64,000 nt of DNA, from the IMG/VR virus record IMGVR_UViG_2806310702_000001, one strand, 5' to 3'. This DNA is from an uncultured virus (IMG/VR IMGVR_UViG_2806310702_000001) (Duplodnaviria > Heunggongvirae > Uroviricota > Caudoviricetes). Under the pieces are notes generated by a model that was not told the origin of the DNA, made no database searches, and saw only the letters and a program-made list of their open reading frames with translations. Made by a program: the position numbers and the translations under genes. Position 1 is the first letter of the stretch. The number at the start of each line of letters is the position of its first letter. This document shows positions 3,839 to 61,918 of this stretch, in pieces.

Positions 3839-6078
3839 TGGCTGATATTATTGAAAAGTTTAAAGGGAAAATAGAAAAGTGTTTATACTCAAAAGATGAT
3901 TATAAAATTTATAAAATTAAGATTAATAAAAATGAATATTCTAATATCAAACTTAATGACAATAATGAGTATATTATATCAGGAGACGTACATAATTTAG
4001 TTCCTAATGTTGAATACGAGATTATAGGTAAAGAAATACATAATAAATACGGGTTTCAATATAAAATTTTAAATGTTCGTAGAGATAAACCCGAGGACGT
4101 AGAAAGCTCACGTAAATTCTTAAAAGAAATTATAACAGAAAAACAAGCAGAAACTTTACTATCTGTATATCCAGATATAATTAATAAAGTAATACAAAAC
4201 GACTTGAATGATATAGATTTAAACTTAACGTCGGGCATTAAGGAAAAGACATTTAATAAAATTAAAAAATCTATAATTAATAATTTTTGTCTAATAGACT
4301 TAGTAGATAAATTTGATGGTAATATTTCTTTTTCTATAGTAAAGAAATTATATGATAAATATACATCTTCGGAAATGACACTCAAAAAAATGAGACAAGA
4401 TCCTTATTCTTGTCTCTGTTCTTTGGGAAGAGTAGGGTTCAAAACTGCCGATAAAATCCTTTTATCGTTGGAGAAACAGGCTAAAATAAAAAAACAAAAA
4501 GGAGAGTATGTTAAATTTAGCTTTGATTATGATTTAGCTACGTCAAAACAAAGAATGAAGGCTTGTATAACATATATACTTGAAGATAACGAACATAATG
4601 GAAATACAAGAATTGATATTAAAGAAGTAAGAAAACAATGCAATAAACTAACTCCTGAATGTATTAATTATTTTGTAGACGTCATAAAAGAAACTAAAGA
4701 AATACATACCGATAGAGCTAGTAAAACTTTATCTATCTATCAAACATATCAATCTGAAAAATATATAGCCGAAACCATATTGAGTATGCTTAAAAATAAA
4801 TTGGTTTGGAATATAAATACGGAATTATATAGAGAAGATGAAGGAATAAAACTAACAGACGAGCAAATGGGTGCGTTAGATTATTTATGTAAGTACAACG
4901 TTAGTATATTAACAGCTCCAGCGGGTAGTGGGAAGTCGCAGAGCGTTAAAATGATGGTAAATATGCTTGAAAACAATAATAAAAGTTATTTATTGATGAC
5001 TCCAACGGGCAAAGCAGGAGATGTATTAAGCGAATATACTCATCGAGATGCAGGAACTATACATAGACAATTAAAATATAATCCTAAAAATAAAAAGCCT
5101 TGGACTTACAATAAAGAAAATAAGTTAGACGTTGATGTGGTTTTTGTTGATGAATTTGGAATGGTAGATATTTATTTAATGACTCATTTATTAGATGCTA
5201 TTGATATCAACAAAACAAAATTAGTATTAGTTTTCGACAGCTATCAATTAAGTAGTGTTGGCTGTGGTAATGTAGCACATGACTTACTAATGAGCAAAGT
5301 CATTCCTACTACAATTTTAACCAAGATATTTAGATATGATGAAGGTGGATTAATGCAAATAGCCACTAAAATAAGAAATAGTGAGAAGTTCTTACCTTCT
5401 AATTTTAAAGGAATTAAGATTTTTGGTAGTGAGAAGGATTATATTTACATAGAAAGACCACAAACAAAAATGATAGATGAGATAATAAAAATATATTCTA
5501 AACTATTAAAAGATGGATATAGATTTGAAGATGTAATGGTTTTATCAGCATACAATAAAGGAGATTACGGAACGAAAGAGATTAATAAACAGATTCAAAA
5601 ATTAGTACAAAACAACACAGAAAATAAATATTTACAAAGAGGAGATATTAAGTTCTATAAGGGAGATAAAGTAATTCAAGTAACAAACAACTATCAAGCT
5701 ATAACAATTGAGGGAGATAAGGCAGAGGTATACAATGGTAACACAGGAGTTATAGCAGAAGTAAATTTTGATGAAGTGGTAGTACAATTTAAACATCATA
5801 ATATTATGTATACAAAAGATGATTTAGAACAATTAGAATTGGGATATTGCGTATCTACACATAAATCACAGGGAGATAACGCCAAGAATATTATATTAAT
5901 AACGCCACGATCACATACTTATATGCTAAATTCTAATTTGCTATATGTAGGAGTAACTCGTGGTAAGAAAAGAGTATATCATATAGGTAATATCGCTACT
6001 ATTAATATGATTATTAAGAAGAAAGAGAATTGGGAAAGAGATACCTTTCTTAAAGACCTATTAACAAAATTAAATTAA
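3838..6078 (+). CDS. recD2: RecD2/TraA-like SF1B helicase
   Basis: Walker A APAGSGKS, VDE, HKSQG, LYVGVTRGK, HhH GFKTAD; ATG at 3838 overlaps the dnaE stop and follows GGGAGG. Confidence 0.9.
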   Translation: MADIIEKFKGKIEKCLYSKDDYKIYKIKINKNEYSNIKLNDNNEYIISGDVHNLVPNVEYEIIGKEIHNKYGFQYKILNVRRDKPEDVESSRKFLKEIITEKQAETLLSVYPDIINKVIQNDLNDIDLNLTSGIKEKTFNKIKKSIINNFCLIDLVDKFDGNISFSIVKKLYDKYTSSEMTLKKMRQDPYSCLCSLGRVGFKTADKILLSLEKQAKIKKQKGEYVKFSFDYDLATSKQRMKACITYILEDNEHNGNTRIDIKEVRKQCNKLTPECINYFVDVIKETKEIHTDRASKTLSIYQTYQSEKYIAETILSMLKNKLVWNINTELYREDEGIKLTDEQMGALDYLCKYNVSILTAPAGSGKSQSVKMMVNMLENNNKSYLLMTPTGKAGDVLSEYTHRDAGTIHRQLKYNPKNKKPWTYNKENKLDVDVVFVDEFGMVDIYLMTHLLDAIDINKTKLVLVFDSYQLSSVGCGNVAHDLLMSKVIPTTILTKIFRYDEGGLMQIATKIRNSEKFLPSNFKGIKIFGSEKDYIYIERPQTKMIDEIIKIYSKLLKDGYRFEDVMVLSAYNKGDYGTKEINKQIQKLVQNNTENKYLQRGDIKFYKGDKVIQVTNNYQAITIEGDKAEVYNGNTGVIAEVNFDEVVVQFKHHNIMYTKDDLEQLELGYCVSTHKSQGDNAKNIILITPRSHTYMLNSNLLYVGVTRGKKRVYHIGNIATINMIIKKKENWERDTFLKDLLTKLN

Positions 6079-7357: not shown

Positions 7358-7397
7358 AATAAAAGTAACAAACAATGGGAAATAAGGAGGAGTTCAA

Positions 7398-8028
7398 ATG
7401 GATATCAGCAATCTGTCGTACAAAGAGTTTTTATCGCTATCTGCAAAGGAGCAACAATCAATATTATCTGAATTAGAAAATTCAAACAATAAATATAACG
7501 AATTTAAGAACGCTAAAAATTTAGCAGAAATGAGAGAGATAAAAACAAATAGAATACAATATCTGAGGAATCTTATACAAGTGGTACTAGTTTCTTAGAC
7601 AACGAATTATCTGTTAAAGAAAATTATAATAAGATAAGAAGAGTGTATAGAGGATTATTTGTAAGCAACAATGGTATTAAGATTAATGCTGATGTAAATG
7701 GAGCATATCAAATAATGAGAAAAGTATTCTCGAATGTGAAAGCTGACGAGATAGAGGGGATAGGGTTATCTCCAATTAGAGTAAATATAGCTTAATACGA
7801 CTATGATATATTATTATTTTAATAATATTAATAATTATATAAGTTATATTGACTAATAAAAAATAATATTTATTAAAATTTATAATTAATTTTAATAAGA
7901 TTTATATTATTTATAACCTAGCTGGTAATATTATTGATGGTATTTGTACAGTTCTAAATAGTGATATATTAAAAAGTTATGTAGACAAATTGCATGATAT
8001 TGTTAAAATTATTAACAAATATAGATAA
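7398..8028 (+). pseudogene. hypothetical gene interrupted by a tnpB remnant (N part 7398-7564, putative C part 7918-8028)
   Basis: ORF with AAGGAGG SD runs into tnpB sequence; an orphan open frame LAGNIIDG...KYR* resumes after the IS end. Confidence 0.5.
7565..7917 (+). mobile_element. tnpB: IS200/IS605-type remnant: 3' end of tnpB (7565-7795) plus right-end region
   Basis: Translates EESYTSGTSFLDNE...RRVYRGLF...KINADVNGAYQIMRK...*, a TnpB C-terminus with RuvC III NAD; right boundary approximate. Confidence 0.85.
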
Positions 8029-8042
8029 GGAGGGGTTAACAT

Positions 8043-8216
8043 ATGACCAATGAAGATAAACTAATGGCACAAAATATTATTGAAACAGCAAAATTACTTA
8101 AATCACAAATTAGAGTATTATGTAAGCAACATAAATGTTGTGAAACATGTCCTTTTGAAAAAGTGTCGTGTAGTAATCATATATTATTATCAGAAGTAAA
8201 GTTAAATTTAAAATAG
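8043..8216 (+). CDS. small Cys-rich hypothetical protein (57 aa)
   Basis: [21 protein letters not shown] motif. Confidence 0.6.
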
Positions 8217-8229
8217 GGAGAGGATTTAT

Positions 8230-36519: not shown

Positions 36520-37011
36520 ATGCGATTTAAAAAATTATATAAAAGGAGATGTTGCTTTATTAGTAATAATATCAAACAAAAACAATATATTTTAATTATA
36601 GATGATGCTTTATTGCAAGAATATGAGAAAGTTTATTTTAAAAAACATCCTAGAGCTAAGAATAAACCAATTAAAAGCCCAATCCATCCATCAATCAATG
36701 TGTGGGCAATTAATAGAATGGTAATGAGAAATATGAAAAATCAATGGAAGGAGTTTGGATTATGGCTAGTCAATAAATTAGGATATGCGAATTTACATAT
36801 AGAAAAGTTTCAAATTACAATGAAAAATTATTACTCTAATAGAAGACGTAGAGACAACGATAATCAAAGCCCAAAATTCCTATTAGACCCTTTAGTTGAA
36901 AGTGGAATGTTAGTAGATGATGATTATAAGCATTTGAATCCTTTAATTATAATGGGATTTTATGATAAAGAACATCCTAGAATGGAAATTATTATTGATG
37001 TTTTAGAATAA
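36520..37011 (+). CDS. rusA: RusA-like Holliday junction resolvase (start probably ATT 36559)
   Basis: PSIN, RRRDNDN..KFLLDPLV..G..DDD. Confidence 0.8.
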   Translation: MRFKKLYKRRCCFISNNIKQKQYILIIDDALLQEYEKVYFKKHPRAKNKPIKSPIHPSINVWAINRMVMRNMKNQWKEFGLWLVNKLGYANLHIEKFQITMKNYYSNRRRRDNDNQSPKFLLDPLVESGMLVDDDYKHLNPLIIMGFYDKEHPRMEIIIDVLE

Positions 37012-37037
37012 AGATAATAAAACTTAATGTATACATA

Positions 37038-37145
37038 TTGAAATATTTTACATATTGTATTATAATAAATATAGAGCCTTTTACACATAAGGACTCTTGC
37101 AAATTTATGTTCTTAGGACTAGGGAAATATTCTCTAGTCCTTTTT
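37038..37145 (+). ncRNA. small RNA unit A (promoter plus about 73-nt RNA)
   Basis: TTGAAA-17-TATAAT; 5' hairpin; terminator AGGACTAGGGA/TCTCTAGTCCT + T5. Confidence 0.6.
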
Positions 37146-37161
37146 AAATTAATTGCAATTA

Positions 37162-37285
37162 TTATATTTTTATTGTATTTAGGGTATAATAATAGTATCT
37201 TTCATGAGGATTATTAATCCTATACGACTTATTGTCGTATCAGAAGAGGGTAAGGAGTGGTGTCCTTATACCTCTTTAATTTTTT
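37162..37285 (+). ncRNA. small RNA unit B (promoter plus about 90-nt RNA)
   Basis: TATAAT 37185-37190; two short hairpins; terminator with GTGGTG loop + T tract. Confidence 0.6.
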
Positions 37286-37326
37286 AACTGATATATTTAT
37301 CACTGCATAATGTAAAAAATAGTGGC

Positions 37327-37505
37327 TATAATTAGCTACGTATAATATACTATTTATATATTTGTTTAATTCAATTGATTAAATATTTTAAATTTTTCAT
37401 ACGCAATATTATTTTTATGACTGTCTTTAATGACTGTTTTTTTGCGTAAATTTCATACAACAAATAAAGAAGATAGGGCGTGGTGTCTTTATCTTCTTTA
37501 TTTAA
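37327..37505 (+). ncRNA. small RNA unit C
   Basis: TATAAT boxes at 37327 and 37341; TACGCAA/TTGCGTA stem around a duplicated ATGACTGT; terminator with GTGGT loop. Confidence 0.45.
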
Positions 37506-37544
37506 TATTAAGCAAAATATTTTATTCGTATTTTTATTATAATG

Positions 37545-37718
37545 TTATCATATTCTAAAAATGTGATATAATAATAAATGTAATATCATTAAGTATCAGA
37601 AGATATTTTCTCCTGATACTTACGGAGGTCTCACCGTTTTATTGATATTAGTTATTTAATTTTATGTAACATGGAAAAGAAGAGTAGGTATTATTGCTTA
37701 CTATTTTTTTCCTATGTA
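37545..37718 (+). ncRNA. small RNA unit D (three-way junction)
   Basis: TGn-TATAAT 37564-37572; TAATATCA/TGATATTA encloses two hairpins; terminal hairpin 37670-37716. Confidence 0.55.
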
Positions 37719-37785
37719 CTTATTTATTAAATCCAAACATGATAAAATTCCTGTTTTATTATTAATTTAGTTATCTTTCTTATAA

Positions 37786-38154
37786 TCATTTAGCAAAGAA
37801 ATATTGTGCTATCATAACTCCTATACCAATAATCGTTCCTAATACTCCCCAAAATTCCTTTCTATCTGTAAGTTTAATATTATTATCAGTTTGGATTGTA
37901 GATTTAAATGTGGAAGTCAAAGCGTCCGTTACCTTATTCATCATTAATTCATCAGATTTACGATTCTCTTTCTGGGTTTCATACATTAAATTCTTGAGTT
38001 CCAGTTGACCTTTTGAAATTTCATTTAACTGTAACTCCATTTTAATATTGGACTCCTCTAACTTCCTTATTCTAATTTCATGTTCTTTAATTGCACTTTT
38101 ATTATTTTCAATATCATCCTGTGTTCTTTGTTGCCATAATTCTTCGCTATTCAT
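37786..38154 (-). CDS. holin-like / XhlA-like protein
   Basis: HEIRIRKLEE coiled coil plus C-terminal TM; AAAGGAGG SD before ATG 38154. Confidence 0.6.
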   Translation of the reverse strand: MNSEELWQQRTQDDIENNKSAIKEHEIRIRKLEESNIKMELQLNEISKGQLELKNLMYETQKENRKSDELMMNKVTDALTSTFKSTIQTDNNIKLTDRKEFWGVLGTIIGIGVMIAQYFFAK

Positions 38155-38210
38155 AATAAAACCTCCTTTCTTTGTTACGATGTTTTTCAATTTGATTTTA
38201 TAATGTAGAG

Positions 38211-39415: not shown

Positions 39416-39672
39416 TTTAATCACCTTCCTTTTAGGTTAAAAAAATAGCCCTAACCCACTAGTATCAATGGTTTAGGACTTGTCCACTTTACAAGACATA
39501 ACCACCGTTATGTCTTGTATGTAATTTTATTTATGCTTGATATTTCAAAAATCGATTTATATGATTTTACAATTTTCAAAATAAATTCAACTTGGTAAAT
39601 ATACATTTAAATGATATTTAAAATTTAATTTATAATATAATTGATACTATAATTTTTATAATAATACTGAAT

Positions 39673-39836
39673 TTGACAATAAATTGTATGTGGTATATAA
39701 TTGAAGATATTATATATGGTTTATATTATATAATATACATTTATACATTCTCTGATTTTGTTTATATTCTTTAAAATTTTATACGAATTTATCATTAAAA
39801 CAAATACCTCTAGTATTAATTTACTAGAGGTATTAT
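39673..39836 (+). ncRNA. candidate ORF-less transcript (about 130 nt) from a consensus promoter
   Basis: TTGACA-17-TATAAT at 39673-39701; ends at hairpin 39803-39836. Confidence 0.5.
39803..39836. terminator. bidirectional terminator
   Basis: AATACCTCTAGTA-TTAATT-TACTAGAGGTATT. Confidence 0.75.
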
Positions 39837-39846
39837 TCGTAGATGC

Positions 39847-47056: not shown

Positions 47057-47202
47057 TAACTCTACTCACCTACCTTTTTATTAAAATTGCAAAATGAGGA
47101 TAGATTTATAGCTTGATATGTCTACGTTATCTCGTCCTCATTTTGCGATAAAAGTCTTGTTTTATTTAATTGTCTTTTTATTTACTTCGTAATATTTTTC
47201 TA

Positions 47203-47388
47203 TTATGCAGTATGCTCTGTTATTTCTTTTTTATCTTCTTTAAATCCTACATCTTCCAATACTTCTTTTACACATTCTTGTAAATTAAGTAAAGGTGGCA
47301 CTTGATCATACGTATAAGTTCCGTTTAAAATTAAGCTAACCCAAACTTTTACACATCCTGAATTCTTGTTAAATTTAAAACTTGTCAT
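47203..47388 (-). CDS. small tail-fibre-associated protein (XkdX/CD1375-like)
   Basis: LILNGTYTYDQVP..L...VKE; position after tail fibre genes. Confidence 0.6.
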   Translation of the reverse strand: MTSFKFNKNSGCVKVWVSLILNGTYTYDQVPPLLNLQECVKEVLEDVGFKEDKKEITEHTA

Positions 47389-47397
47389 ATTTATCAA

Positions 47398-47560
47398 CCG
47401 TTGCCAAAAATCTATAAATATCTATAAACCTTGTTTAATTCCCTGTTCCACCTGTTCCATTTTGCCGAGGCTACTTTGGTTTGTATAACAGTCCAAGGGC
47501 TTAAATTCCCATACAACGAATGGTACATATTAGCATTATCTTTTTAAGTGATACTATGCT
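47398..47560 (-). ncRNA. predicted TnpB omegaRNA scaffold (right end); 5' limit approximate
   Basis: Non-coding GC-enriched stretch between the tnpB stop and the right end, as established for TnpB elements. Confidence 0.65.
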
Positions 47561-61381: not shown

Positions 61382-61918
61382 CTAAGCATCTACCTTTATT
61401 TCTTTATTTATATTCATTTTTGTTTTATTATCATATTTTGTTTTAAACTCATGTAACCTTTTCATGGCATTAATTGTGATTCCATTATGAAACGACTTCA
61501 ATATTGCCGTCTGATGCTTATTATCATCATCTAAGAACTCTAATACAATGAATTTTTCCACCGTTTTCTTTTTCTTTTTTGCTCCCAATGCAAATATTCC
61601 TAACATTAAAACTCTTGTTAATGTTATATGTTCGCTTATTTCTTCTGTGGTTTTTAAATTATAATCTAGTAATCTATCATATGATAATTTTATATTATAT
61701 GGTTCGGAAGTTAACGCAACATAATCTGGTTCTATAGTCAATCCCATGCTAATATTACTATCAAATATTTTCAAAGTACCATCTATATACTCACTTCTTA
61801 ATATATATTCTTTATGTTTACCATCTTCTTTCTCTTTTCTCTCCTTTTCTATTCTTATCAAATTACCTATTAAAGAAACAACAAACATTCCAATTAAAAT
61901 ATATAAACACCACTCCAT
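61382..61918 (-). CDS. membrane-anchored moron protein
   Basis: N-terminal TM; TRVLMLGIFALGAKKKK. Confidence 0.7.
   Translation of the reverse strand: MEWCLYILIGMFVVSLIGNLIRIEKERKEKEDGKHKEYILRSEYIDGTLKIFDSNISMGLTIEPDYVALTSEPYNIKLSYDRLLDYNLKTTEEISEHITLTRVLMLGIFALGAKKKKKTVEKFIVLEFLDDDNKHQTAILKSFHNGITINAMKRLHEFKTKYDNKTKMNINKEIKVDA

Follow-up and report, generated by a model that had tools for sequence, protein, structure and literature searches.

Results

Gene content around the gap

Positions 37012-37785 of the window, by which we mean the whole 64-kb stretch of DNA analyzed here, form a 774-bp gap without an ORF that extends from the stop codon of one gene to the stop codon of the next. The source element of the window is a large Clostridium plasmid-prophage related to c-st (185,683 bp), which was the nearest record among those compared and has 23% of the window's sampled words in common with it. 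When the region was searched by blastn against 50,697 phage records, c-st and phage D-1873 were the sole matches, at the right edge from 37743. The host of c-st and D-1873 is Clostridium botulinum of types C and D; both phages are toxin-converting.

To the left of the gap lies a + strand block of DNA-metabolism genes that includes two topoisomerase II/gyrase-like subunits and a 5' deoxynucleotidase, and that is closed by a rusA-like gene (36520..37011, +; 163 aa). The product of this gene matches RusA-like PHROG families (best E 4.6e-12) and has no Pfam match at E 0.01. At the DNA level, the gene is 83% identical to the allele carried by five related IMG/VR records (L005-L009) and is unalignable to c-st from base 36581 onward. 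To the right, a − strand block encodes a 134-aa protein (37786-38190, −), a XerC/D-type recombinase, metallo-beta-lactamase-fold proteins and a glucosaminidase-SH3 endolysin; its first part (37743..38190, −) is conserved at 92-93% DNA identity (blastn) in c-st and D-1873. Inspection of the translation reveals a hydrophobic C-terminal stretch in the 134-aa protein, which is described here as membrane-anchored. The initial annotation had called this gene a holin, a name for which we find no support: Pfam gives no match, the PHROG to which it belongs (15236) is of unknown function, and its neighbors in the atlas are hypothetical phage proteins. With a + strand block on the left and a − strand block on the right, the gap is a true convergence point, and the naming of the two blocks as early and late, also taken from that annotation, is plausible.

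The absence of genes from the gap is borne out, as the ORFs that can be read in it are 20-59 aa long and none has a Shine-Dalgarno-like sequence (judged by eye). Relative to c-st, 36581-37742 is a replaced module, with identity returning sharply to 93% at 37743, so that the gap lies between two mosaic breakpoints, 36580 and 37743.

Predicted terminators and RNA structure

The gap had been described as a tandem array of four small-RNA transcription units, A to D, on the + strand. The sequence features named in that description are all in place, and every hairpin it named is predicted by folding. In each of units A, B, C and D the + strand fold is more stable than the − strand fold, by 3.6-7 kcal/mol, and the stems contain G-U pairs (inspection of the folds). 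Because the unit segments had been chosen by eye, we added two unbiased scans, one for hairpins followed by a T tail and one for fold z-scores in sliding windows.

The hairpin-plus-T-tail scan of the + strand listed 54 sites at dG <= -8 in the 64 kb and 13 at dG <= -13; the A, B, C and D terminators make up 4 of these 13. Taking a stable hairpin with a T-rich tail as the definition of an intrinsic terminator, we thus count four predicted + strand terminators in the gap, at dG -13.6 to -20.1 and with a spacing of 110-230 bp, while a strict terminator scan retains the unit A terminator alone. For the fold scan, windows of 80 nt were slid across each of the 19 intergenic regions that exceed 150 bp. 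The + strand of the gap is the most structured of these regions (mean z -2.24; 12/35 windows below -3), compared with a mean z of -0.54 and 6% of 450 windows below -3 in the remaining 18. Structure is concentrated in the predicted transcribed parts, with body z-scores of -3.9 in B, -3.0 in C and -3.95 in D, against only -0.9 to -2.0 in the promoter spacers. As first noticed, the gap is unusually structured and carries four + strand hairpins resembling intrinsic terminators.

No known RNA class was recognized. ARAGORN reports no tRNA or tmRNA in the whole window (0 genes). A search of 37012-37785 with Rfam 15, which had been proposed as a check, returned no family at the gathering thresholds, and at E up to 10 it gave three noise matches of 13.6-15.2 bits (two plant microRNA models and one other). 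The gap has no tandem repeat array, the nearest thing being a 13-nt unit repeated 2.2 times (37413-37441); its direct-repeat families have two copies each at 73-81% identity, and iteron-like repeats are absent. In the absence of a tandem direct-repeat array, the gap does not have the form of a type III (ToxI-like) toxin-antitoxin locus or of a phage mimic of one. Nor does it have that of a type I locus, since a toxin ORF of that type, small, hydrophobic and with its own ribosome-binding site, occurs neither within the gap nor next to it. No CRISPR-like repeat-spacer array was reported in the 64-kb window. For a riboswitch or attenuator, both an Rfam match and a + strand ORF after any of the four terminators are missing.

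Two strong promoters

The G+C content of the DNA here is 21-26%, and TATAAT boxes are thus common. Over 3 kb, promoter-like boxes are not enriched overall (23 found versus 24.5 expected in shuffles); since such matches occur at the level of shuffled sequence, we narrowed the analysis to the strongest sites. Promoters were scored by hexamer matches, a TG extension counting as one point, and a score of 11 or more was taken as strong. The 64 kb contain 13 strong sites: nine fall in intergenic DNA, which makes up 14% of the sequence, and four in coding DNA, which makes up 86%. This amounts to a 14-fold intergenic enrichment per kb, from which we conclude that the majority of sites scoring at least 11 are probably real. 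Two of the nine strong intergenic sites are the promoters of units A and D, both on the + strand; with 0.087 strong promoters expected in the gap, finding two or more has a probability of P = 0.003 (2000 dinucleotide shuffles).

Promoter A (37038..37066, +) reads TTGAAA-17-TATAAT, with 11/12 matches, and promoter D (37545..37572, +) reads TTATCA-16-TGnTATAAT, with a score of 11 that includes the TG bonus. Judged as housekeeping-sigma promoters by a spacing of 16-18 nt and a score above chance, A and D qualify and B and C do not: the latter two have a consensus -10 with a -35 of only 3/6, and their best score of 9 is ordinary in this DNA. A box near-identical to promoter D precedes a ribosome-binding site and an ORF in a Clostridiaceae genome (L036), which fits with promoter D being of a working type. 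Against the A and D promoters, however, it must be said that the four sites scoring at least 11 within coding sequence include one only 850 bp upstream (36193).

Unit A and its counterparts in c-st-like phages

Unit A (37073..37146, +) has a predicted RNA of ~75 nt, consisting of a 5' hairpin (37073-37097) and a terminator (37115-37141) followed by a T run. It folds at -24.0 kcal/mol (z -4.6), and its terminator reaches -16.0 in the hairpin-plus-T-tail scan; the 5' hairpin alone is not significant (z -1.7).

We define an A-type unit by three elements: a strong promoter right after rusA, a terminator hairpin whose core is CTAG, and, between the two, a weakly structured RNA segment of 40-48 nt. 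Such a unit is present in c-st, D-1873, the five IMG/VR relatives L005-L009 and the window. The interval between rusA and the gene for the 134-aa protein is about 190 bp and holds one unit in c-st and D-1873, and is about 280 bp and holds one unit and a 69-aa ORF in L005-L009, versus 774 bp in the window. The promoter reads TTTACA-17-TGnTATTAT in c-st and D-1873 and TTGATA-17-TGnTATTAT in L005-L009; in all of these it scores 11 and sits 40-48 nt upstream of the terminator hairpin. According to an alignment read by eye, the -35 hexamers of the three lineages occupy sequence that is unalignable between lineages, falling in the last rusA codons in L005 and in ~45 extra bases in the window. A -35 of 5/6 or better is found at only 39 of the 2345 -10-like sites in the window (1.7%). 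Differing -35 sequences at a constant 17-nt spacing in three lineages are what a maintained promoter would look like, and constitute our best evidence for one.

The A-type units of c-st and L005 are 74% identical (shuffled 54 +/- 2), though the rusA genes next to them are unalignable. Unit A of the window is 64% identical to that of L005 (shuffled maximum 61.6%) and 62% to that of c-st (59.4%), and by this weak but above-chance similarity it is a diverged homologue of the A-type unit.

Other comparisons speak against unit A as a small-RNA gene. The 5' transcribed part of A-type units shows 62-74% identity, whereas the flanking gene shows 83-94%. Covariation across related phages had been suggested as a check, and in an alignment of six A-type units none of ten pairs is compensatory (0/10). 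As for the structural conservation that the initial annotation expected, the promoter and the terminator are conserved in A-type units but the body between them is not. The more distant relative L010 has a protein gene downstream of rusA whose promoter lies directly behind rusA and precedes a leader hairpin, so that the conserved A-type promoter could be the leftover of a similar gene-driving promoter.

Unit D, a gene relic and the origin of the additional DNA

Unit D (37581..37719, +; predicted RNA of ~135 nt) comprises a three-way junction (37581-37650), an AU-rich linker and a terminator (37666-37719; dG -20.1) with a T run at 37704-37710. It folds at -42.4 kcal/mol (z -6.4), and the junction alone has a z-score of -3.95.

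On the opposite strand, 37701..37766 (−) preserves a relic, recognized by translated similarity to the C-terminus of an ORF in L005, of the last 21 codons and the stop of a 69-aa ORF. This − strand ORF is intact in L005-L009, where its stop is inside the terminator; in the window the stop of the relic falls inside the D terminator, and c-st carries a relic like the window's. The presence of the relic indicates that decay leaves debris in the gap.

The right flank of the D terminator (about 37712-37770) aligns with the right flank of the single terminator in c-st and L005. From this alignment and from the position of the relic, the D terminator appears to occupy the place of the ancestral terminator. 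The ancestral promoter, 5' part and CTAG-core hairpin are retained by unit A. We infer a split or a duplication of the ancestral unit, along with the insertion of ~515 bp (about 37150-37665) that hold units B and C as well as the promoter and junction of D.

Units B and C

Unit B (37185..37286, +) has a weak -35 ahead of its -10 box (37185-37190), then two neighboring hairpins (37207-37221 and 37222-37240) and a terminator (37243-37277; dG -16.4) with a T tail; it folds at -29.9 kcal/mol (z -4.4). In unit C (37327..37508, +), two -10 boxes (37327-37332 and 37341-37346) with a weak -35 are followed by a stem (37400-37448) that encloses two ATGACTGT copies, and by a terminator (37462-37503; dG -13.6); the z-score is -4.6. 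In tblastn, neither the 27-aa frame that crosses B nor the 42-aa frame that crosses C has a relative (best E 4-5).

These two units had been thought to share a loop on different stems. The terminators are instead paralogues, with 81% identity over 26 nt that include the GTGGTG loop (direct-repeat family D3). By inspection, their pairing is kept through a double change from G-C in B to A-U in C, and both contain G-U pairs that are possible on the + strand alone. This points to local duplication with selection for + strand hairpins, and says nothing of separate transcription. A third match to the shared motif, at 61901-61916 (−) with two mismatches, lies at the start codon of a 178-aa gene; with 0.10 matches expected by chance and no extension, we regard it as coincidence.

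Natural variants, relatives and targets

We found 21 public sequencing runs for the region, and none of those listed as containing it is recorded as RNA; 19 runs contain the region, which suggests that further genomes of this lineage exist. We compared contigs from four of the runs (X9, X10, X13 and X14), which are short and derive from low-depth DNA. Pieces without any difference from the window occur in each of X10, X13 and X14; X9 has short, poorly matching fragments only. Three single-base differences fall within the gap across the run contigs. The X13 contig has two substitutions in hairpin 2 of unit B, one turning a pair into a wobble and the other breaking a pair, and they weaken the fold from -29.9 to -24.4 kcal/mol; at a contig depth of 3.7, this is weak evidence against constraint on the hairpin. 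The run contigs contain no joint that skips a unit, and the sole joint observed (37900-38018) is outside the gap.

The ~515 bp between the A and D terminators had no relative in any collection searched. The gap gave no match among 72,556 plasmids, matched the whole c-st genome in its flanks only, and matched two IMG/VR records in AT-rich pieces of at most 62 nt (E 2.4e-4 or worse). A pattern scan of IMG/VR, exact or degenerate, returned 0 matches for the B/C terminator and 0 for the D junction. Among 17 genomes of one genus (13 scored), a single 38-nt match covered the D promoter region only. A shallow scan of 401 Clostridiaceae genomes (382 scored, two candidates per genome) produced matches of 30-103 nt in 16 genomes, which fall without exception in promoter zones or AT-rich spacers and never extend across a hairpin body. 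For either flanking protein, JGI metagenomes yielded 0 relatives, and species-representative genomes yielded two distant matches whose gene context is not the one seen here.

We also built a covariance model from the one available sequence of the D junction. It gave no match in c-st or in two further phage records; its matches in the window were the junction itself, the junction's own reverse strand and two weak ones (E 0.4-0.55). One match among 148 scored genomes (E 4.5e-4 per genome) is attributed to chance: it is a single hairpin on the other strand from its flanking genes, and reads as a terminator on the strand of those genes.

As to targets, we compared the gap with the remainder of the window by short-word blastn; only AT-rich matches of at most 19 nt came out, and no unit had a target among them. 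The best complementarity elsewhere in the window consists of three 16-nt AT-rich matches (E 0.01), which we read as low-complexity chance. A literature search on small RNAs of group III phages gave none among the matches listed, and phage-borne small RNAs, like the term 'c-st', are absent among the passages listed from a review of the regulation of neurotoxin synthesis (PMC9229411).

Discussion

With four terminator hairpins, two of them behind strong promoters, the gap probably makes one or two small RNAs. In each of units A and D, a strong promoter is followed, ~75 nt (A) or ~135 nt (D) downstream, by a hairpin with a T tail, with no credible ORF in between. From the sequence as we have it, we consider the chances about even that the gap is a mosaic module junction holding a conserved candidate small-RNA gene (A), a lineage-specific candidate (D) and stacked terminators. 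The initial annotation had gone further and counted four self-contained transcription units. A and D do have the full anatomy of autonomous small-RNA genes, but the promoters of B and C are at chance level, and these two would more likely be leftover or auxiliary terminators than independent genes.

On the strength of the anatomy, its statistics and the conservation of A-type units, we infer how the locus might be transcribed, where its RNAs might end and what they might do. The host housekeeping RNA polymerase would transcribe A and D into short discrete RNAs ending at their own intrinsic terminators, as in the expression of phage 'morons'. The four stacked + strand terminators would jointly prevent read-through from the DNA-metabolism block into the block on the other strand. 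Adjacent to the convergent gene for the 134-aa protein, the D terminator may also end the − strand mRNA, since its A-rich 5' flank and T run could terminate convergent transcription too. If so, the D RNA (in c-st, the A-type RNA) and that mRNA would be complementary at the mRNA's 3' end. The D RNA and the A-type RNA could then be cis-antisense or base-pairing regulators; a trans-acting role is equally open.

Several other explanations have to be weighed. A less probable but still quite possible one is that the gap is a stack of terminators, which end the + strand operon repeatedly, amid recombination debris with relics of lost genes; the promoter-like boxes would then be dead or due to chance, and any RNA made there would lack a function in its own right. 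Such a stack would fit a density of promoter-like boxes no higher than in shuffles, units B and C with -10 boxes only, a natural variant that weakens hairpin 2 of B, and B, C and the D body being unique to the window's lineage; the proven relic of the 69-aa ORF and the location of the gap exactly between the breakpoints with c-st at 36580 and 37743 favor it as well. It is harder to reconcile with two score-11 sites on the right strand ahead of terminators (P = 0.003), with a strong promoter spaced at 17 nt in three lineages by different -35 sequences, or with B and D bodies (z about -3.9) that exceed what a terminator needs. The structured segments, D above all, might alternatively be orphaned cis-regulatory leaders or 3' ends of deleted donor-phage genes, with D as a leader of the riboswitch or attenuator type. 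A layout of promoter, structured junction, linker and terminator is typical of transcription-attenuating leaders, and unit D is laid out in just this order, with its three-way junction as the structured part; gene loss at the junction is documented by the relic, and in L010 the promoter after rusA drives a gene by way of a leader hairpin. We nevertheless think this explanation improbable: D matches no Rfam family, no + strand ORF lies downstream, and the B and C frames hold no protein-level remnant (tblastn best E 4-5).

We find it equally hard to credit the original proposal of four independent small-RNA genes forming an exchangeable arsenal against host defenses or mRNAs, made up of antitoxin or CRISPR-repeat mimics or protein sponges. 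In its favor, there are four terminator-capped structured segments on one strand, the content of the locus varies between related phages, and the duplicate terminators of B and C attest to local duplication. However, the B and C promoters are not above chance, there is no Rfam family even at E up to 10, no repeat array like that of a type III antitoxin beyond the 13-nt unit x2.2, and no CRISPR-like array reported in the window; with no Rfam match, tandem repeat array or convincing complementarity, the roles as antitoxin mimic, CRISPR-repeat mimic or sponge are not supported. The content of the locus does differ among related phages, but turnover unit by unit is not supported: B, C and the D body occur in no other record, and no unit was found alone or in another context in any collection searched, which leaves the gain or loss of single units without support. 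A bolder variant of the small-RNA interpretation, which strikes us as rather unlikely, is that plasmid-prophages of the c-st type keep a noncoding slot after rusA, with the A-type RNA as a conserved regulator, and that the slot has grown here by capturing RNA genes (D, perhaps B and C), as a noncoding counterpart of a moron cassette. The A-type RNA of such a slot might target, for example, the operon of the convergent membrane protein and recombinase, or host genes in the lysogen.

Returning to the module junction with candidate genes A and D, we believe that it matters for the following reasons. If A and D are transcribed, the plasmid-prophages of the c-st group would have in them, to our knowledge, their first candidate regulatory RNAs. 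That three lineages keep a promoter with differing -35 sequences provides a concrete, testable prediction. If A and D are untranscribed, the locus would show how terminators and relics of genes accumulate through recombination where modules meet, and come to resemble RNA genes.

Comparison with known systems

As candidates, A and D belong to a known kind, phage-borne small-RNA genes beside stacked terminators; the non-trivial point is that, judging from the related phages compared, a promoter-to-terminator unit is kept after rusA across c-st-type phages. The OOP RNA of phage lambda, ~77 nt long, has its own promoter and intrinsic terminator, lies at a convergent point and is complementary to the 3' end of a neighboring mRNA. 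Units A and D resemble it in size class and placement. They have no sequence or structure similarity to it, however, the neighboring genes differ, and up to four terminators are stacked here; the overlap with mRNA is known for OOP, whereas the overlap with the − strand mRNA would follow here from the position of the D terminator.

Among small RNAs akin to noncoding 'morons' are the Spr RNAs of S. aureus islands. The Pas small RNAs of E. coli prophages are likewise reported as prophage-encoded noncoding 'morons' (bioRxiv 10.64898/2026.05.13.724894). A and D are like the Pas and Spr RNAs in that each is an autonomous, ORF-less promoter-terminator unit between phage modules, variable among related elements; the former are predictions from sequence, the latter were detected experimentally and have known targets. 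Another comparison is with the antitoxin RNAs of type I toxin-antitoxin pairs, which are reported on Clostridioides difficile prophages (PMC7699646). What they have in common with the gap is a mobile element from a clostridium on which a small RNA, here a candidate, converges with a membrane-protein gene. Unlike in those pairs, neither the gap nor its flanks offer a small hydrophobic ORF for a toxin that is preceded by a ribosome-binding site; at 134 aa, the product of the convergent gene far exceeds type I toxins in size.

Two further systems share the tandem arrangement. Listeria LhrC1-4 form a tandem array of small-RNA genes that are paralogous copies of one RNA; their promoter-to-terminator units stand head to tail in one intergenic region, as do the units here, but the unit bodies in the gap show no relation to each other, and paralogy is confined to the terminators of B and C. 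Stacked, or tandem, intrinsic terminators are known at operon ends. The gap likewise presents several hairpin and U-tract signals on one strand, but they are spaced 110-230 bp apart and accompanied by extra structured segments and two strong promoters, which termination does not need.

Other promoters and structured RNAs in the window

A further orphan unit running from promoter to terminator, or alternatively an antisense RNA, could lie at 39597-39846. The strong-promoter scan places a perfect consensus promoter (TTGACA-17-TATAAT) on the + strand at 39673-39701, among genes that are carried on the - strand. Just upstream, a 12-nt AT-rich tandem repeat occupies 39597-39655 in 4.9 copies, and about 100 nt downstream of the promoter is a hairpin (39805-39832) with a terminator score in either orientation (-15.6 on + and -16.7 on -).

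The only curated RNA family recovered by the search of the whole window is RAGATH-18, as a full-length motif on the - strand at 47439-47499, with E 2.2e-9 and 60 bits where the gathering score is 44.9. The motif sits inside a 497-bp intergenic region (47057-47553) within the - strand block.

The gap under study, 37012-37785, is exceeded in length by the interval 7372-8229, which spans 858 bp without an ORF of at least 70 aa. In this longer interval there is one promoter site with a score of 11 (matches to the -35 and -10 boxes, plus one point for a TG extension), at 7982 on the + strand, and the intergenic fold scan found no unusual structure there (mean z-score about -0.5 to -0.65).

A near-copy of the terminator motif shared by units B and C, with 2 mismatches in 16 positions, encodes the first residues of a 178-aa protein (61382-61918, - strand). 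The chance expectation for such matches is 0.10, and we judged the link between the motif and the start of this gene to be a coincidence.

Mosaic boundaries and remnants of a 69-aa ORF

In all five IMG/VR relatives (L005-L009), the interval from the terminator to the 134-aa gene holds a 69-aa ORF (- strand; 3538-3747 in L005), whose stop codon falls within the terminator hairpin; the ORF has no PHROG match. All that remains of it in the window (37701-37766) and in c-st (locus L001, about 3962-4020) are its C-terminal codons.

Compared with the Clostridium botulinum phages c-st and D-1873, the window has sharp mosaic breakpoints at 36580 and 37743, between which 1.16 kb aligns to neither; beyond 37743, identity of 92-93% to both is restored. 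At the start of rusA, the first 61 nt are 90% identical to c-st and the first 52 nt 96% identical to D-1873. The window's rusA allele is of the type found in L005-L009 (83% identity), and its product is 163 aa long versus 215 aa in c-st.
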